Source: Escherichia coli
GTDB taxonomy: Bacteria; Pseudomonadota; Gammaproteobacteria; Enterobacterales; Enterobacteriaceae
Direction: 5' to 3' (one strand)
Assembly: GCA_902499925.1 (NCBI GenBank)
Contig: GCA_902499925.1_4130.1
Length of the DNA stretch: 64,000 bases
The notes under the pieces were generated by a model, which saw nothing but the letters and a program-made list of their open reading frames with translations, searched no databases and was not told where the DNA came from. Made by a program: the position numbers and the translations under genes. This document shows, piece after piece, positions 59,656 through 64,000 of the stretch (position 1 is its first letter; every line of letters begins with the position of its first letter).

Positions 59656-59890
59656 TCTCTCGCCTCCATTTCTCGGTTCTAATGTGTTGACATTGTGCTT
59701 CGATGAACATATCTATTGATTTGGCAATTGCTTTTTTATCTGTGCCTGTCATCAGTACAAGCATCTCGGCCTCACAGTGAAGTAAACGCATGATATCATA
59801 GGGTAATATTCCAGATACCGTGTCATAGTGTTTCTGTGCCAGTGTCTGTAATAGTTTACAATACATTTTGTGATTTAGTCTGTGTCGCAT
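59639..59890 (-). CDS. GTNYQ-family small paralog (divergent core)
   Basis: 83 aa; LMTGTDKKAIAK at the core position. Confidence 0.55.
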   Translation of the reverse strand: MRHRLNHKMYCKLLQTLAQKHYDTVSGILPYDIMRLLHCEAEMLVLMTGTDKKAIAKSIDMFIEAQCQHIRTEKWRRENDNPK

Positions 59891-60147
59891 TGTTTATTCC
59901 ATTCTTTTTTGGCCTTGATGGTTTTATATTGGATTTGGTTTCTTAATGCTGATAAGTATCGTTGAATGAACAGATCTTGATAGTTTGTTCCAATGAATTT
60001 CATCAGATAAAGTTCACCGTTGATAACATCCACTTCAGGTGCACCATATAAGGCATTGTTTTTTCTAAGGGTATGGATTAAAGAGAATAGGGCAGTTTGA
60101 TACTCAACTCCTGATAAAGTCTTCATGTTTTGTGAGCCAATAATCAT
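59875..60147 (-). CDS. GTNYQ-family small paralog
   Basis: 90 aa (alternative ATG 60126 gives MKTLSGVEY); KFIGTNYQDLFI. Confidence 0.7.
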   Translation of the reverse strand: MIIGSQNMKTLSGVEYQTALFSLIHTLRKNNALYGAPEVDVINGELYLMKFIGTNYQDLFIQRYLSALRNQIQYKTIKAKKEWNKQCDTD

Positions 60148-60361
60148 CTAGTTTATCCTGTATAACATTCATTAATTGTTCGACATATTCTGTGCAAAAC
60201 TTATCTTGATATTGAGTCCCCATAAAGTACAACAACCATAGCTCATTAACTTTAGCTCGCATTTGGTTCCATGTAAGGCTGGGGTCATCGTAGACTATCC
60301 TTGCTATAGGGGTTAGTTTACGGACTATAGTTTCATATTCATCTAGTGTTAAGTGTTTCAT
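60104..60361 (-). CDS. GTNYQ-family small paralog
   Basis: 85 aa; YFMGTQYQDKFC. Confidence 0.7.
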   Translation of the reverse strand: MKHLTLDEYETIVRKLTPIARIVYDDPSLTWNQMRAKVNELWLLYFMGTQYQDKFCTEYVEQLMNVIQDKLDDYWLTKHEDFIRS

Positions 60362-60576
60362 TTACATTTGTCCCTTATTAGATCAGTGAGGGCAACTATG
60401 TGTGCAACAACATACTCTTCCTGAAAGTTCGTCCCCAGTACAGCCATCATGCGTATATCGGTGGTGTTTATCCTGTGTTCCCTTACACATAAACCTTCTG
60501 TGTGAGGAAGTGTAAAATATTTGTTTATTGCAGCAACGATAATTTTATTCTTCTCGGAGTTACTTAAATGTTTCAT
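60358..60576 (-). CDS. GTNYQ-family small paralog
   Basis: 72 aa; AVLGTNFQEEYV. Confidence 0.7.
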   Translation of the reverse strand: MKHLSNSEKNKIIVAAINKYFTLPHTEGLCVREHRINTTDIRMMAVLGTNFQEEYVVAHIVALTDLIRDKCK

Positions 60577-60785
60577 AGTTTGCTCTTAATGTATTTCTGG
60601 AGTGCAATTATATACTCATTCAAGAAATGCTCCTGATAGTCTGTGCCGAGGAATGCACCCAATAGTATATCATTTTCCAATACTAATGCTAAGTTTAAAT
60701 CATCAGTCTCTTCATATACTATGAGAATTTCAAGTTGTCTGGCAGCGACGCGTTCGGTATATAGATTTGAGTTAATGCTATTCAT
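60573..60785 (-). CDS. GTNYQ-family small paralog
   Basis: 70 aa; AFLGTDYQEHFL. Confidence 0.7.
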   Translation of the reverse strand: MNSINSNLYTERVAARQLEILIVYEETDDLNLALVLENDILLGAFLGTDYQEHFLNEYIIALQKYIKSKL

Positions 60786-60994
60786 AGTTTACTCTTAATG
60801 TAATTCTGGAGTGCAATTAAGTATTCCCCTACATAATACACCTGAAAGTCTGTATCCAAAAATGCACCCATAAGTAAATCTTTTTCTAATACCCTTGATA
60901 AGTTAAGGTCTGCATTTGAAAGGTATATAAGTAAGATTTCACCCTGTGCGGAATTGAAACGTTTCTTATATTCTTCTGGTGTTAAAAAAATCAT
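60782..60994 (-). CDS. GTNYQ-family small paralog
   Basis: 70 aa; AFLDTDFQVYYV; close paralog of 60573..60785. Confidence 0.7.
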   Translation of the reverse strand: MIFLTPEEYKKRFNSAQGEILLIYLSNADLNLSRVLEKDLLMGAFLDTDFQVYYVGEYLIALQNYIKSKL

Positions 60995-61200
60995 AGTTTC
61001 CTCTTAATATCTTCTATTAAAAATCGAATCCAATCGTCAACATACTCTTCCTGATGGTTTGTGTTCAGTACAGCCAACATGCGGATCTCTGCTCTTGCAA
61101 CTTCAATTGCAGTTTTAGGAAGGTCTTTTCTGATATCCAACATTAAGTCCATGTATCTCAAGATAAGACCGTATGATTGGGTTCGTGTTATAGTTTTCAT
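60991..61200 (-). CDS. GTNYQ-family small paralog
   Basis: 69 aa; AVLNTNHQEEYV. Confidence 0.7.
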   Translation of the reverse strand: MKTITRTQSYGLILRYMDLMLDIRKDLPKTAIEVARAEIRMLAVLNTNHQEEYVDDWIRFLIEDIKRKL

Positions 61201-61397
61201 TGTTTCCTCGTGGATAATATTTCATTTTTCAATGCATCCATATATTGAATCACCCATCTTCCCTGATAGCTTGTTCCCAATGTAATCAAAAGGTATAACT
61301 CAATTCGTTCTAAGTTTGTGTCTGTGTTATAAATCTTTACCATGTTTTTACGTAACAGTTCTTGATAATCTTCTTTATTTAAAATACGCATTTTCAT
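61197..61397 (-). CDS. GTNYQ-family small paralog
   Basis: 66 aa; ITLGTSYQGRWV. Confidence 0.65.
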   Translation of the reverse strand: MKMRILNKEDYQELLRKNMVKIYNTDTNLERIELYLLITLGTSYQGRWVIQYMDALKNEILSTRKQ

Positions 61398-61591
61398 AGT
61401 CTACCTTTTATGTCCCTTCGTAATTCTTGTAAGTATAGTTCGATATACTTTTCTTGATAGTTAGTTCCTATGAAAAGTTTCATAACCAATTCACGCTTAT
61501 ATGCAATACCACGGATATGTGACATATGTAGGATATATGCCATGTTGGATATGAGTGTGTGGTTGTGCTCTTCTTGAGTTAAAATACGCAT
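61394..61591 (-). CDS. GTNYQ-family small paralog (first gene of the array)
   Basis: Track 61394..61621; ATG 61591 (MRILTQEEH) has GGAG upstream and lies downstream of promoter 61622-61649; LFIGTNYQEKYI. Confidence 0.7.
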   Translation of the reverse strand: MRILTQEEHNHTLISNMAYILHMSHIRGIAYKRELVMKLFIGTNYQEKYIELYLQELRRDIKGRL

Positions 61592-61621
61592 AGGGACTCC
61601 ATTAAAAATAATATCAATCAT

Positions 61622-61649
61622 ATAATATACAATTCATATAAAAAGTCAA
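61622..61649 (-). promoter_or_regulatory. sigma70-like promoter (TTGACT-16-TATTAT) heading the GTNYQ array
   Basis: -35 at 61644-61649, -10 at 61622-61627; other -10 registers are possible in this AT-rich stretch. Confidence 0.45.
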
Positions 61650-61840
61650 TAACATTTTATTAGTAATACCCCTTTATCGAAGTCGCTAAGGTTACCCGCC
61701 CTTTAGCCCCCTACGCATTTTGCCATAGTCCAATCCCTTTTTATTCATAAAAGTCAAGGGATTACCTATGCATTTTTTTAACGCTGAAATTTAAAAATGC
61801 CTTGACTTTTTTATGATTCAGTACTAAATCCTTTTACGCA

Positions 61841-62050
61841 TTAATCCTTCGTTACGCTTACGATTATCTGTGTATCCCCATAGTCCTGCCATACTTCCAC
61901 GCCAGCCGCCGCCCTGGTTAGTCGTGCTGTCATCTGCTTAATGGTCTTAGGCTTTAGTGGAACCTGTTGCAGTACTGTACGCATAGCACTATCGACGTTA
62001 TCATGTACGCCTGCAATAGTGCCTAGAACGTTGTATACTGTATAGATCAT
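61841..62050 (-). CDS. hypothetical small protein (GC-richer module)
   Basis: 69-aa ORF, AGGAG RBS. Confidence 0.6.
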   Translation of the reverse strand: MIYTVYNVLGTIAGVHDNVDSAMRTVLQQVPLKPKTIKQMTARLTRAAAGVEVWQDYGDTQIIVSVTKD

Positions 62051-62084
62051 GTGTATGTACTCCTGATATAGTTAAGGCCGCTAG

Positions 62085-62104
62085 AGAGCGGCCTATGATG
62101 TTTG
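62085..62104 (-). terminator. GC-rich hairpin without U-tract (terminator-like or mRNA-stabilising)
   Basis: Perfect 8-bp stem AGGCCGCU-CUCU-AGCGGCCU after 62119..62520; no following U run. Confidence 0.4.
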
Positions 62105-62118
62105 ATGATGTGTAACGC

Positions 62119-62520
62119 TTACAACCCTAAGATAGTACGTGCTTCGTTGCGTTCCGTCCACAACTGCATGATGTGAGCAAGTAAGTCCTTGCTAATGTAT
62201 CCGGTGTTCATAGCTTCACGGATAGATACATCATAAGCACCGAAGCCAGTGCGAACGATACGCACATCATTCAGGTTAGTGTTATAGATACCGCCGAGAT
62301 CAACGGCTTCGAATACTGCATCAACAGAATATTCATTGTTGCCATCGTTGAAGTTTTCCAGTGCAATAGTATTGGATACCGCCCAACGTTTGCAGTTTCC
62401 AATGATGCGGCACTGTTCCGGTTGGATAGTGCCATTACTTACAGCGTACTCCAGTGCATCTTTACCAAAAGTCCGAGCCAGTACTAAAACGTCAGCGAAG
62501 GAAGTGATTGAGAAGGTCAT
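62119..62520 (-). CDS. hypothetical protein (GC-richer module)
   Basis: Track 62119..62583 runs through the promoter and UTR hairpin; ATG 62520 (MTFSITSF) has TAAGGAG upstream. Confidence 0.65.
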   Translation of the reverse strand: MTFSITSFADVLVLARTFGKDALEYAVSNGTIQPEQCRIIGNCKRWAVSNTIALENFNDGNNEYSVDAVFEAVDLGGIYNTNLNDVRIVRTGFGAYDVSIREAMNTGYISKDLLAHIMQLWTERNEARTILGL

Positions 62521-62540
62521 GATAAAACTCCTTAATTTAG

Positions 62541-62562
62541 GAGGGAGAACCATTTCCCCCTC
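62541..62562 (-). promoter_or_regulatory. conserved 5' UTR stem-loop, copy 1
   Basis: Minus-strand RNA GAGGGGG-AAAUGGUU-CUCCCUC (7 bp including one G-U); lies between the -10 box and the RBS. Confidence 0.55.
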
Positions 62563-62574
62563 TCTATGTAAAAC

Positions 62575-62602
62575 ATTATACATGAATCTAAGTACTATGC
62601 AA
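62575..62602 (-). promoter_or_regulatory. sigma70-like promoter (TTGCAT-16-TATAAT)
   Basis: Followed by the conserved GTTTTACATAGAG + stem-loop leader; upstream of 62119..62520. Confidence 0.65.
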
Positions 62603-62609
62603 GTACTTT

Positions 62610-62942
62610 TTACATTTTGATACCTGGATTCAGGTAGCGGTGAGATCCATATTCTGGATCGGTTTCGGCCCAGTACTGTAAATCTATAGTACCTTTAGCG
62701 TTAATCTTGTCTACCAGCTTATTCATCTTAGCGTATACTACATCAGCATCGATGCGTTTAAAGCCAGTGGCTTTAGTGAAGTAGTAGTGATTTGCTTCAC
62801 TATCATTAAGGATGTACCGAGCACCGTTTGCCGTTTGTGCAATAATGATTGAGTATTCTACGTTACGGTCGAGGCCGTCAATGAATACAGAGGAAACATT
62901 AGTACGGATGAAAGCTTTAACGATAGCGATTGAAGTAGTCAT
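62610..62942 (-). CDS. hypothetical protein (GC-richer module)
   Basis: 110-aa ORF, AGGAG RBS, own promoter 62996-63024. Confidence 0.65.
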   Translation of the reverse strand: MTTSIAIVKAFIRTNVSSVFIDGLDRNVEYSIIIAQTANGARYILNDSEANHYYFTKATGFKRIDADVVYAKMNKLVDKINAKGTIDLQYWAETDPEYGSHRYLNPGIKM

Positions 62943-62995
62943 TTTGAATCTCCTAACTTTGTGGGCCGTCGCACCGTTGCCGCCCTACGAGATAC

Positions 62996-63024
62996 ATTAT
63001 CGCAGTACTGATATACTTTGTCAA
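62996..63024 (-). promoter_or_regulatory. sigma70-like promoter (TTGACA-17-GATAAT)
   Basis: Upstream of 62610..62942. Confidence 0.6.
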
Positions 63025-63140
63025 TACTTTTTTATTAATAGTTTCCACTCCACCAGCAGATAGTTACTCACCGTTATTAACTATATATTTTGGGTACACC
63101 TATGCACCCTGTGGGCTAGTTTTTGTCTATGCGTATATAA

Positions 63141-63170
63141 TAGCAAAGGGACTGACCGGAGTCAATCCCT
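63141..63170 (-). terminator. hairpin terminator
   Basis: AGGGAUUGAC-UCCG-GUCAGUCCCU then UUUGCUAUU; the internal pair is G-U on the minus transcript but a C-A mismatch on the plus transcript, favouring minus-strand function. Confidence 0.5.
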
Positions 63171-63187
63171 TTTTTTATTCTTTTTTG

Positions 63188-63388
63188 TTAGATGATTCTC
63201 CAATCATCAACGATCATGGTAAGATACCGAACCAGTGATCCGAGTGATTCGTGTTCTCGATAGTCTGCCGCTCCACCAGCGGTACAAGTACAGCCGATTA
63301 AGCCGTTTTGTAGTTCCTGGATCTTTACGTCGATCTGGTTGGCTTTAGCTTCTTTCAGTACTTCAACCAGGGCGATAGCGATAGACAT
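63188..63388 (-). CDS. hypothetical small protein (GC-richer module)
   Basis: 66-aa ORF, own promoter 63444-63471, hairpin terminator downstream. Confidence 0.6.
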   Translation of the reverse strand: MSIAIALVEVLKEAKANQIDVKIQELQNGLIGCTCTAGGAADYREHESLGSLVRYLTMIVDDWRII

Positions 63389-63410
63389 AATGTTTTACTC
63401 CAAACTATTG

Positions 63411-63431
63411 GCGGGAGAACTATTCCCCCGC
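63411..63431 (-). promoter_or_regulatory. conserved 5' UTR stem-loop, copy 2
   Basis: Minus-strand RNA GCGGGGG-AAUAGUU-CUCCCGC; the A-U pair of copy 1 is replaced by C-G (compensatory change). Confidence 0.55.
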
Positions 63432-63443
63432 TCTATGTAAAAC

Positions 63444-63471
63444 ATTATACATTACTGGTTAGTACTGTCAA
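63444..63471 (-). promoter_or_regulatory. consensus sigma70 promoter (TTGACA-16-TATAAT)
   Basis: Followed by the conserved GTTTTACATAGAG + stem-loop leader; upstream of 63188..63388. Confidence 0.7.
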
Positions 63472-63478
63472 ATAGTTT

Positions 63479-63736
63479 TTATGAAATATCTTCGATGTAG
63501 TCGGCCCATTTCATTTTTTCAGTACTGTCAATGGCGACCGGATTATTTGGATCAAACCATTCACCATCACCGCAATACATACCCACGGCTACGGTTTTAT
63601 AGCCATCCTGGGCCGCACTCCACGACATTGCACGATAGATATGGCCTTTAACTGGTTGCAGTACTGGTAACGTTTTATGGTCTTCTACGTAGGCCATAGC
63701 TTGAGGATTTACCCGATATTGTGTGAACTGATCCAT
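63479..63736 (-). CDS. hypothetical small protein (GC-richer module)
   Basis: 85-aa ORF, GGGGA RBS, promoter 63764-63792. Confidence 0.6.
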   Translation of the reverse strand: MDQFTQYRVNPQAMAYVEDHKTLPVLQPVKGHIYRAMSWSAAQDGYKTVAVGMYCGDGEWFDPNNPVAIDSTEKMKWADYIEDIS

Positions 63737-63763
63737 TATGTTTCCCCTTGTAGTTAGTAAAGT

Positions 63764-63792
63764 TATTACATCAGTACTATCAAGCTATGTCA
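63764..63792 (-). promoter_or_regulatory. sigma70-like promoter (TTGACA-17-TGTAAT)
   Basis: Upstream of 63479..63736. Confidence 0.5.
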
Positions 63793-63887
63793 ATAGTACT
63801 GAAATAAAACTTTTAGATTAGATTATTGAGGCCGTCAATGGTAGACTCACTTTCTTCTTTCTCCCATTGTCGGTAGTACTTCCATGC

Positions 63888-64000
63888 TTCATGATAGGTG
63901 GCGATTAGTTCATCTTTTTGATCCTGGTTACATGCCAGTACTGAATCACGGTGAGCGGTGTTATAGATAGAATCGAATGATTTCTTCTCTTCTGCCAGGT
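63888..64000 (-). CDS. hypothetical protein (partial, 5' end beyond window end; C-terminus possibly frame-disrupted)
   Basis: Open frame from the window edge (..LAEEKKSFDSIYNTAHRDSVLACNQDQKDELIAHLS*) stops at 63888-63890; another frame stays open to TAA 63812-63814. Confidence 0.3.

Follow-up and report, generated by a model that had tools for sequence, protein, structure and literature searches.

Promoter-early stem-loop (PeSL) cassettes have been described in the T4-type phages RB49/phi1, T4/PST and KVP40/nt-1 (Arbiol et al., 2010, PMC2839356; Comeau et al., 2014, PMC4122927), and in RB49 a G/C hairpin of such a cassette cut the expression of a downstream lacZ gene as strongly as the rrnB T1 terminator (PMC2839356). 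They are the closest known system to the cassettes analysed here, which extend this known idea and introduce no new principle. Host-takeover early regions located in phage terminal repeats, such as the pre-early region of T5 and the terminal redundancy of SPO1, are also similar: in them, a long terminal repeat contains arrays of many small, functionally uncharacterised genes, and every gene has its own strong promoter of host type and ribosome binding site (RBS). To our knowledge, neither a conserved, covarying family of leader hairpins nor cassette exchange has been described for these two regions. Hairpins at the 5' end of an mRNA are exemplified by the T7 gene 10 leader (GGGAGACCACAACGGUUUCCC). 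In E. coli, 5'-terminal stabilising stem-loops are carried by the ompA and papA mRNAs, and the requirement of RppH and RNase E for single-stranded 5' ends explains how a 5' structure stabilises a transcript (reviewed in PMC3997798). The literature on Asteriusvirus, CBB, phAPEC6, fEgEco12, fENko-Kae01 and rV5 contains neither a description of hairpin cassettes nor a transcriptome.

Architecture of the Two Cassettes

The end of the window (the whole 64-kb stretch of DNA that was analysed) is the inner edge of a direct terminal repeat, approximately 21 kb long, of an Asteriusvirus, a jumbo coliphage of the PBECO4/121Q type. The inner end of this repeat, an early-gene region that houses the cassettes (61689–64000, minus strand), was delimited from the annotation of phage vB_Ec-M-J. 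Two cassettes of about 90 nt are present on the minus strand, at 62609–62521 (copy 1) and 63478–63389 (copy 2), which confirms the near-identical elements that an earlier note on this DNA had placed in front of genes 62119–62520 and 63188–63388. The copies share the -10 hexamer, the leader GTTTTACATAGA, a 9-bp hairpin and the RBS, with 85% identity over approximately 95 nt and an exact 22-mer in common. A 19-mer with no more than 3 mismatches was found twice in the window (0.14 occurrences expected by chance), and a covariance model (R1), built from the copies of other genomes, produced only two matches in the 64 kb, namely copy 1 (72.1 bits, E 4.6e-14) and copy 2 (50.8 bits, E 4e-9). Rfam covariance models gave no match with E ≤ 1 in the region 61500–64000.

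Copy 1 (62521–62609, minus strand) fills the intergenic space between the stop codon of gene 62610–62942 and the ATG of gene 62119–62520. It contains, in the direction of transcription: (i) an AGTACT motif followed by the -35 hexamer (AGTACTTGCAT, 62597–62607), of which ACTTGCA is invariant in orthologues, the hexamer itself being TTGCAT (62602–62597); (ii) a 16-nt spacer and the -10 hexamer TATAAT (62575–62580); (iii) the conserved discriminator and initial transcribed region GTTTTACATAGA (62563–62574), consisting of GTTTTACAT (62574–62566) and AGA, with a predicted transcription start at A62567, judged from the usual distance of 7–8 nt to the -10 hexamer; (iv) the hairpin GAGGGGGAA-AUGG-UUCUCCCUC (62541–62562; 5' arm 62562–62554, 3' arm 62549–62541), with 9 bp including one G·U pair and a folding energy of -15.9 kcal/mol; and (v) the Shine-Dalgarno (SD) sequence AAGGAG (62528–62533), followed by the ATG at 62520. 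When a longer context of copy 1 is folded, a competing structure appears, in which the 5' arm pairs with codons 2–4 and the SD sequence is sequestered.

Copy 2 (63389–63478, minus strand) extends from the stop codon of gene 63479–63736 to the ATG of gene 63188–63388. Its -35 hexamer TTGACA (63471–63466) overlaps the AGTACT motif (TTGACAGTACT, 63461–63471) and is separated by 16 nt from the -10 hexamer TATAAT (63444–63449), which is followed by the same leader GTTTTACATAGA (63432–63443), likewise ending in AGA, and a predicted start at A63436. The hairpin GCGGGGGAA-UAG-UUCUCCCGC (63411–63431; 5' arm 63431–63423, 3' arm 63419–63411) again has 9 bp including one G·U pair (-14.4 kcal/mol, z -3.5), and the SD sequence GGAG (63398–63401) precedes the ATG at 63388. 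In both copies the SD sequence lies 7–9 nt before the ATG, and an A-rich tract is found upstream of the promoters. The stems had previously been given as 7 bp, but an AA/UU extension lengthens each of them to nine. Both promoters had been described as near-consensus, which holds for both -10 hexamers and for the -35 hexamer of copy 2; the -35 hexamer of copy 1 matches TTGACA in only three of six positions.

The AGTACT motif, for which no literature was found, is not a codon or peptide artefact. The promoter at 63024 was considered as a third hairpin cassette and rejected, as its fold is no better than that of shuffled sequences (z = 0.3), and the leader of the promoter at 63793 is unstructured.

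The gene behind copy 1 (62119–62520, minus strand) encodes a protein of 133 aa (phrog_10173) and the gene behind copy 2 (63188–63388, minus strand) a protein of 66 aa (phrog_14244), both of unknown function. The two proteins share no similarity, which rules out duplication of a whole unit as the origin of the two copies and indicates that the cassette is a portable module. Both genes had been regarded as monocistronic. This is correct for gene 63188–63388, since a canonical intrinsic terminator (AAAGGGATTGACTCCGGTCAGTCCCTTT, 63145–63172, minus strand), a contrast class to the leader hairpins, lies behind it. Behind gene 62119–62520 there is only a weak hairpin (62094–62075) that lacks a T-run, and the RBS of gene 61841–62050 comes immediately next, so these two genes are probably co-transcribed.

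The Cassette Family

The two copies are not a simple duplicated module, as first thought, but two members of a larger family, which numbers about 26 per genome and whose remaining members lie beyond the end of the window. The terminal repeat of vB_Ec-M-J (21.5 kb) contains 26 copies, which stand in front of about 26 of its 53 small genes, and many copies are near-identical within one genome. The covariance model gave 94 matches in 223 kb of related repeats, all of them on the gene strand. Scans of IMG/VR for two sub-types added only 121Q and three large contigs. The genes behind the cassettes are unrelated ORFans whose products have no known function. Both window cassettes belong to a multi-copy family of portable units for early-gene expression, whose home is the terminal repeat of Asteriusvirus-type jumbo phages and which is also present in rV5-like phages.

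About a dozen promoters of the terminal repeat have no hairpin, so the hairpin is not essential for early expression. Since the hairpin-less cassettes (ACTTACAT) also carry GTTTTACAT, this conserved segment is assigned to the promoter and start-site region and not to the hairpin.

Several traces of recombination were identified. A 408-nt gene is present or absent between relatives, and a chimeric cassette marks its gain or loss. A conversion of a 35-nt patch, comprising leader and hairpin, has swapped one hairpin for another, and this event concerns the hairpin of copy 2. The single crossover that could be mapped lies in a promoter spacer and not in the hairpin, and hairpin-less cassettes recombine too (deletion across an 85-nt overlap). 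Units composed of a cassette and an ORFan are shared with the Vequintavirinae phage A73 at 73–90% identity and in shuffled order, one such unit being present in 116 records. The cassettes recombine with each other and travel with their genes between phage lineages.

Covariation and Position of the Leader Hairpin

The pairing observed in the window extends to additional copies: across 80 distinct copies, 97.0% of the stem cells are paired, versus 86.7 ± 0.6 in shuffles, in an alignment fitted to the structure and composed of sequences related to each other. Double changes occur in all nine stem pairs, and 64 cells are compensated, as opposed to 17.3 ± 3.9 in shuffles and 2–11 in slid registers. 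There are 48 distinct stems, all of which keep pairing. G·U pairs (30) outnumber A·C mismatches (8; binomial p = 4.7e-4), and the 5' arm is 90% purine across the family. The extent of pairing, the double changes in all nine pairs and the G·U:A·C ratio of 30:8 together indicate selection on a sense-strand RNA hairpin. A MAFFT alignment of 57 copies was not used for these counts, as varying loop and spacer lengths put the arms out of register, and the seed alignment of the covariance model was rebuilt from real sequences only (A4).

A single compensated pair separates the window copies, A62561–U62542 in copy 1 versus C63430–G63412 in copy 2. The difference is real, but the earlier note had treated it as the classic signature of a selected structure, and on its own it is weak evidence, because conversion of a short patch, as documented for the hairpin of copy 2, carries both arms jointly. 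The selected structure on the transcribed strand is upheld by the covariation of the whole family and not by this pair.

The hairpin starts 9–14 nt after the -10 hexamer in 71/71 copies, that is approximately 2–5 nt from the inferred 5' end, and its end is separated by 17–23 nt from the ATG throughout the family, with the RBS about 8 nt after the hairpin. Its earlier assignment to the 5' UTR agrees with this position downstream of the expected start site. The uppermost part of the stem, GAA...UUC, is nearly invariant, while the loops (3–6 nt) have many sequences (AUGG, UAG, CAC, ACAUC and others); GGAG motifs occur in both the 5' arm and the SD sequence. In orthologues from phages of four host genera (E. 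coli, Klebsiella, Salmonella and Erwinia) the copy 1 hairpin including its loop is 100% identical, whereas the promoter spacer and the RBS linker have diverged. The rV5-like phage UPEC06 has the same leader and a different stem (GCGGCA/UGCCGC).

None of the 71 copies has five or more T residues in the 8 nt after the stem, and a terminator scan did not call the leader hairpins. The promoter-less GC hairpins of the same repeat served as an internal control: these have 3–7 T residues in the next 8 nt (at least four in 9/12), as compared with 0–3 for 21 leader hairpins, which rules out that the leader hairpin is a canonical terminator. Two promoter-less hairpins with T-runs (L006 4895 and 15793) are of the same sequence type as the leader hairpins. 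Hairpin cassettes are also found as the first unit of the repeat and immediately behind canonical terminators, positions at which nothing arrives from upstream that could be attenuated. Overall, the hairpin is kept by compensatory change on the sense strand, at a fixed position and without a U-tract.

Alternative Explanations for the Hairpin

The hairpin could be a PeSL-type attenuator that works on RNA polymerases or transcripts coming from the preceding unit. It would terminate or pause read-through, or form the protective 3' end of a processed upstream mRNA, and the units, with about 40 strong promoters arranged head to tail, would thus be insulated from one another. In most units the stop codon of the preceding gene and the next promoter have no terminator between them, so that any read-through has to pass the hairpin, and the closest known elements, the RB49 PeSLs, are G-run/C-run hairpins without a U-tract, one of which lowered a downstream reporter like a strong terminator (PMC2839356). 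As inspection of the RB49 sequences showed this hairpin to be similar to the leader hairpins, the missing U-tract does not by itself dispose of attenuation, and the T-run hairpins of the same type mentioned above also point in this direction. However, a hairpin downstream of its own (inferred) start would equally abort the transcripts of its own unit, the real terminators of the same repeat do have U-tracts, and the hairpin is kept in the first unit and in units already preceded by a terminator. Its constant distance from the -10 hexamer would be needless for a pure terminator, and the position in RB49 varies. We regard attenuation as unlikely. Quite improbable, in our view, is a protein recognition site, either an RNA operator (for a translational repressor, a RegB-like nuclease or an antiterminator) or a DNA operator over +1, whose occupancy would turn the entire early regulon on or off in concert. 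The confinement of the element to one temporal gene class (the ORFans of the terminal repeat), the invariance of hairpin and loop across four host genera within one orthologue group, the GAA...UUC stem top and the two GGAG motifs would suit such a site, but the loops vary in length and sequence and the stems covary freely, unlike the operators of one protein. For the same reason, the sequence-specific version of the operator for a single repressor suggested earlier is unlikely. Covariation and the G·U bias speak against a double-stranded DNA operator, the occurrence of the same cassette in two phage lineages with few common genes favours host machinery, and no candidate binding protein was identified.

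That the inverted repeat acts as DNA, as a recombination hot spot or cruciform for cassette exchange with the RNA hairpin as a by-product, is very doubtful. There are documented cases of recombination and conversion among the present cassettes, the order of units differs from one lineage to another, and the PeSL authors placed one crossover at a stem-loop and speculated on a DNA-binding protein; however, plain homology of approximately 90 nt is enough for T4-like recombination (PMC2839356). Here the only mappable crossover avoids the hairpin, cassettes without it recombine as well, and both the surplus of G·U over A·C and the strict division into a purine arm and a pyrimidine arm depend on the strand, which neither a duplex nor a cruciform function would predict. 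More speculative again, and to be given little credence, is a structure-specific site for a dedicated protein, a recombinase or an RNA-binding factor, a reading that draws on the loop-inclusive invariance in four genera, the 35-nt transplant of leader plus hairpin and the shuffled units of two lineages. With a recombinase, the units of promoter, hairpin and ORFan would be integron-like cassettes that move actively between unrelated large coliphages; an RNA-binding factor would switch the whole terminal-repeat regulon. Finally, the hairpin might be a functionless, neutral relic, left only by a recent duplication with concerted evolution. The copies do undergo gene conversion, and near-identical copies are numerous in each genome, but the pairing kept by 48 distinct stems, the compensation in all nine pairs, far above both controls, and the retention of the hairpin across genera while the adjoining spacer was randomised leave this explanation strongly disfavoured.

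Proposed Function

The best explanation, which we consider somewhat probable, is that the hairpin serves as a 5'-terminal stabilising and insulating stem-loop in a modular early-gene expression unit. Of the three roles proposed in the earlier note (a repressor operator, an RNase processing or stability element, and a regulator site overlapping +1), a stability element appears to fit the sequence data best. Each unit consists of an A-rich upstream tract with a host sigma70-type promoter, a conserved start-site region, the hairpin and the RBS. With transcription probably starting at the A located 8 nt after the -10 hexamer, the G-rich/C-rich hairpin would begin about 2–5 nt from the 5' terminus of the mRNA that the unit itself produces. 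A stem-loop in this position would be expected to hinder attack by RppH and by 5'-end-dependent RNase E; protection may be incomplete with 4–5 unpaired nucleotides (as in the 12-nt class, to which both window copies belong). The hairpin would also hold the short leader in the same fold whatever coding sequence comes next, so any ORFan placed behind the cassette could obtain strong, context-independent early expression. The approximately 90 nt of common sequence would incidentally provide homology for the gain, loss and shuffling of genes.

Such a stabilising leader would give a concrete explanation for the early, high-level expression of dozens of unrelated orphan genes and for their trade between lineages, with a bearing on the evolution of host-takeover and anti-defence gene repertoires. 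The cassette is also a compact natural part for E. coli (promoter, 5' hairpin and RBS), and with the covariance model annotators can mark the early genes and the terminal repeats of phages of this group.

Comparison with Known Systems

The hairpin shares with intrinsic (Rho-independent) terminators a GC-rich stem of 7–9 bp with an energy of -14 to -16 kcal/mol, and differs from them by the lack of a U-tract (0/71 copies) and by its position downstream of the unit's own promoter. Unlike in elements of the boxB or MS2-operator type, no loop sequence is conserved in all copies, and the loop is invariant only within one orthologue group. The stabilising stem-loops of ompA and papA also place a stable hairpin with a purine-rich 5' arm a few nucleotides from the 5' end (predicted in our case) of a short leader, with a strong RBS close behind, and a block of RppH and 5'-end-dependent RNase E is likewise expected. 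In the present cassettes the 5' end is a predicted one and the single-stranded tail may reach 5 nt; moreover, they form a mobile family repeated ahead of dozens of genes, whereas the known stem-loops each belong to a single gene.

The earlier note had not connected the elements with the PeSL class. As in PeSL cassettes, an AT-rich tract and a strong sigma70-type early promoter come first and the SD sequence and ATG stand at the 3' end; the stem-loop is stable, with a G-run 5' arm, a C-run 3' arm and G·U pairs; many copies lie between small ORFans of a hyperplastic region (here 26 copies for 53 small genes); and the junctions of gene gain, loss or replacement fall inside cassettes (here the 408-nt gene, the patch conversion and the shuffling with A73). 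Homology between the two sets was rejected, since model R1 found no credible match in the 100–150 kb region of RB49, where the published PeSLs are located. One PeSL has shown terminator activity, whereas the sequence of the present hairpins does not suggest any. The present cassettes also differ in their location, the direct terminal repeat of a phage of 350 kb, and the same cassettes and genes occur in a different phage subfamily. The main difference concerns the position of the hairpin. In RB49 it falls between the -35 and -10 hexamers or around the latter, upstream of its own start, and in PST and nt-1 just upstream of the promoter, an order in which only read-through from upstream would transcribe it. 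The present stem, by contrast, always begins 9–14 nt downstream of the -10 hexamer, within the 5' UTR of its own unit. The idea of a mobile regulatory cassette is thereby extended from T4-type phages to 350-kb jumbo and rV5-like phages, with the hairpin relocated to the mRNA leader, where its possible functions are different.

The terminal repeat and its two cassettes

The analyzed region is 95–99% identical to PBECO4/121Q-type jumbo coliphages (~350 kb, genus Asteriusvirus). In the related phage vB_Ec-M-J a direct terminal repeat of 21,525 bp with 53 small genes is annotated; these genes are mostly 80–95 nt apart, and tight packing is found just inside the repeat boundary. Mapped from this annotation, the inner boundary falls at ~61689 of the window, so the final 2.3 kb of the window represent the inner end of the repeat, the remainder lying outside the window. 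At the same position, individually promoted monocistronic units give way to packed operons. A tandem array of packed and overlapping ~70-aa paralogous genes (59875–61621, minus strand; shared motif (L/F)GT(N/D)(Y/F)QE..Y; single promoter at 61649) begins directly inside the boundary, continues onward to 21624–~30000 of L006 (the sequence to which repeat coordinates refer), and has dozens of copies in relatives.

Inspection of 61900–64000 revealed two intergenic units of ~90 nt on the minus strand, upstream of genes 62119–62520 (copy 1) and 63188–63388 (copy 2); re-reading of the sequence thus confirmed the two matching cassettes described in the earlier note, and all cassette coordinates were verified. 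The copies share 85% identity and an exact 22-mer, ATGTATAATGTTTTACATAGAG; their common 19-mer (≤3 mismatches) was found twice in the window, compared with 0.14 expected. Copy 1 is composed of (i) a −35 box, TTGCAT (62602–62597), (ii) a 16-nt spacer, (iii) a −10 box, TATAAT (62580–62575), (iv) the leader GTTTTACAT followed by AGA, (v) a hairpin with 5′ arm GAGGGGGAA (62562–62554), loop AUGG and 3′ arm UUCUCCCUC (62549–62541), (vi) the Shine-Dalgarno (SD) sequence AAGGAG and (vii) ATG at 62520. Copy 2, with the same spacer length and leader, carries TTGACA (63471–63466), TATAAT (63449–63444), arms GCGGGGGAA (63431–63423) and UUCUCCCGC (63419–63411) around the loop UAG, the SD sequence GGAG and ATG at 63388. 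Both stems have 9 bp, not the 7 bp first reported, with one G·U pair each, and the proposed compensated pair was recovered as A62561–U62542 in copy 1 and C63430–G63412 in copy 2. The description of both promoters as near-consensus holds for the −10 boxes, but only 3 of the 6 bases in the −35 box of copy 1 agree with the consensus. Similarly, of the two genes thought to be monocistronic, this is true for 63188–63388, which ends at a real terminator (63172–63145), but not clearly for 62119–62520, downstream of which come a weak hairpin lacking a T-run and, immediately after it, the next ribosome-binding site (RBS).

Between the two cassettes lies a conserved non-coding module of ~100 nt (63187–63080, minus strand), present three times per terminal repeat (L006 14000–14110, 17275–17380 and 20028–20135). 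It contains a terminator hairpin, AAAGGGATTGACTCCGGTCAGTCCCTTT, within which lies a promoter-like TTGACT-17-TATTAT, and then a conserved stretch, AGCCCACAGGGTGCATAGGTGTACCC, able to form a second hairpin. The module, for which no Rfam match was found, may encode a small RNA or act as a bidirectional terminator.

A multi-copy cassette family

The two copies had been taken for a unique duplicated pair; they are instead members of a multi-copy family. BLAST with a 95-nt cassette identified 10–32 places per related genome, and inspection of all upstream regions in the vB_Ec-M-J repeat yielded 26 units with identical part order: an A-rich tract, AGTACTTGCA or TTGACA, TATAAT, GNTTT(T)RCAT, 0–5 nt, a 7–9-bp hairpin (G-rich 5′ arm, GAA...UUC at the top), ~8 nt, SD and ATG. 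Eight copies served to build a covariance model, which detected 94 copies, all on the gene strand, across 223 kb of terminal repeats from relatives (phages of E. coli, Klebsiella, Salmonella and Erwinia; IMG/VR contigs); within the 64-kb window it hit the two known copies and nothing else. Scans of IMG/VR added only 121Q and three large contigs, and no Rfam family matched the cassette (61500–64000, E ≤ 1).

When copies were collected by the −10 box and leader motif only, without demanding pairing, a stem of 7 bp or more followed the 9-nt leader in 71 of 90 distinct copies; in the whole anchored set such stems occurred in 72 of 133 copies, compared with 2% of shuffled controls. A second cassette class, with the leader ACTTACAT, has the same promoter type and no hairpin. 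This assigns the conserved GTTTTACAT to the promoter/start-site region and not to the hairpin. The leaders of the second class are shorter by ~20 nt, which would fit insertion or loss of the hairpin as a module.

Selection on the hairpin

Pair statistics were obtained from a model-based alignment of 80 distinct rows, with shuffles and slid registers as controls. Standard pairs occupied 97.0% of stem cells (shuffles, 86.7 ± 0.6%; slid registers, 52–89%), both-side changes occurred at 9 of 9 pairs (4.1 ± 0.9; 1–4) and 64 cells were compensated (17.3 ± 3.9; 2–11), counts to be read with the caveats that the alignment is fitted to the structure, the copies are mutually related and conversion can carry both arms together. 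A separate register-based count gave 48 distinct stems, with three or four Watson-Crick pair types at each of stem positions 4, 7 and 8. G·U pairs are tolerated in the sense RNA, and A·C corresponds to G·U on the opposite strand; the non-Watson-Crick cells comprised 30 G·U and 8 A·C (binomial p = 4.7e-4). Purines make up 90% of the 5′ arm. In the rV5-like phage UPEC06 the same leader precedes a different stem, GCGGCA/UGCCGC. Orthologues of copy 1 in phages of four host genera are identical throughout the hairpin, including the loop, and have diverged in the promoter spacer (17 nt), the hairpin-RBS linker and the coding sequence. A single compensated pair is insufficient alone; the family-wide evidence is sufficient, and covariation at this level supports the selected RNA structure originally proposed for the 5′ leader. 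The operator role also suggested for it is unlikely.

Terminator or leader element

The isolated hairpins have predicted energies of −15.9 (copy 1) and −14.4 (copy 2) kcal/mol, and a terminator scan called neither of them, while calling the real terminator at 63172–63145. In 71 copies the stem starts 9–14 nt after the −10 box (modes 10 and 12) and ends 17–23 nt before ATG, and none has five or more T in the 8 nt after the stem. Within the same repeat, 12 promoter-less GC-rich hairpins, serving as an internal control and including classical terminators (e.g., AGCCCACCTGGTGGGCT-TTTTTTGT), are followed by 3–7 T in the next 8 nt (at least 4 T in 9 of 12), compared with 0–3 T for 21 hairpins with a preceding −10 box. 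Moreover, the repeat opens with a hairpin cassette, and others directly follow canonical terminators (L006 −10 boxes at 1699, 7559 and 17439), so there is no upstream transcription at these places for the hairpin to stop. Given a canonical start 7–8 nt after the −10 box, at the conserved CA of ...ACAT/...GCAT, the mRNA 5′ end would lie 2–5 nt before the stem, and a terminator at this site would abort the very transcript that carries it.

E. coli mRNAs can be protected by a 5′-terminal stem-loop, since RppH and RNase E require a single-stranded 5′ end (PMC3997798). The end of the hairpin approximately coincides with the start of the ribosome footprint on the start codon; hairpin and ribosome together would thus cover the entire leader. 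The best-supported reading is that of a 5′-terminal stabilizing and insulating element, in which the mRNA would start just 5′ of the stem, the hairpin would shield it from RppH/RNase E and the unit would be insulated; the start site and the stability effect are both predicted. Against a stabilizer, a dozen promoters in the repeat have no hairpin, and an RB49 hairpin of the promoter-early stem-loop (PeSL) type without a U-tract lowered downstream expression (PMC2839356). Copy 1 also has a competing long-range fold, the minimum free energy structure (−20.5 kcal/mol) in a 68-nt context (62500–62567, minus strand), which pairs the 5′ arm with codons 2–4 (CCUUCUC) and CUCCU with the SD AGGAG. This modeled fold, not seen for copy 2, could be a translation-occluding conformation.

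Portability and recombination

The proteins encoded downstream of the two copies are unrelated, giving no BLASTP alignment and belonging to different PHROGs. A 408-nt gene of vB_Ec-M-J and JNE01 is missing from E9.1, where one chimeric cassette combines parts of both flanking cassettes, the crossover lying within the promoter spacer. Upstream of a 264-nt gene, E9.1 and JNE01 retain the resident promoter and RBS, but carry the ~35-nt leader and hairpin of copy 2, a case of short-patch conversion. Hairpin-less cassettes likewise mediate gene loss (L006 16140–16660, compared with the related sequences L007 and L010): of two tandem paralogues (219- and 243-nt genes), E9.1 and EC.P1 lack one, and the BLAST segments overlap by 85 nt at the junction.

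Members of the family were likewise found in phages of the Vequintavirinae (rV5-like, ~140 kb). A73 and the jumbo-phage repeat have whole cassette-plus-ORFan units in common (73–90% nucleotide identity) in a different order, and one such unit was found in 116 phage records, ~70 of them Vequintavirinae. Four ~146-kb "Campylobacter phage" records (MG065639, MG065645, MG065656 and MG065689) matched the promoter part of the cassette exactly as do the rV5-like coliphages; their genomes resemble the Vequintavirinae type, and their hosts may be mislabeled.

The AGTACT palindrome

The window contains 198 occurrences of the hexamer AGTACT (palindromic consensus CAGTACTG), compared with ~17 expected. 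All three reading frames contain it, and it exceeds the frequency allowed by synonymous-codon shuffles 3.6-fold, which identifies it as a DNA-level signal. It is absent from ~46.7–54.5 kb and ~56.5–61.8 kb, and in terminal-repeat promoters it lies beside the −35 box and directly adjoins the −10 box (e.g., 62602–62607, 62591–62596 and 63461–63466). Its density is 4.9–6.7 per kb in jumbo relatives (Asteriusvirus, fENko-Kae01, Munch and Hallingskeid) and 0.25–0.5 per kb in rV5-like phages, with none in 50 kb of RB49 (8.7 expected); the enrichment is specific to the jumbo-phage clade. A literature search found no account of this excess.

Comparison with promoter-early stem-loops

Among described elements, the PeSLs of T4-type phages come closest. 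In these, an AT-rich tract is combined with a strong sigma70 promoter, a stem-loop of the form G(n)-loop-C(n) that includes G·T pairs, an SD sequence and an ATG; numerous copies are interspersed among ORFans, and the elements have been linked to indels and mini-circles (PMC2839356; PMC4122927). In a reporter assay, the stem-loop of one PeSL acted as a terminator (PMC2839356). The cassette family resembles PeSLs in composition, genomic setting and recombination, but differs in hairpin position and has no sequence homology to them. In the published RB49 PeSL sequences, which we extracted for comparison, the hairpin lies inside the promoter, in the spacer (TTGAC-AGGGGATC-acc-GATCCCCT-ATACT) or around the −10 box, and hence upstream of the element's own start; the covariance model gave no credible match in the RB49 PeSL region. 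The accessible literature on Asteriusvirus, CBB and rV5 describes RpoD-like promoters only. We class the family as a PeSL-like variant of the type "promoter then leader hairpin" instead of "terminator/promoter": a well-supported, previously undescribed family of regulatory cassettes with a predicted function, mobile across lineages and conceptually anticipated by PeSLs.
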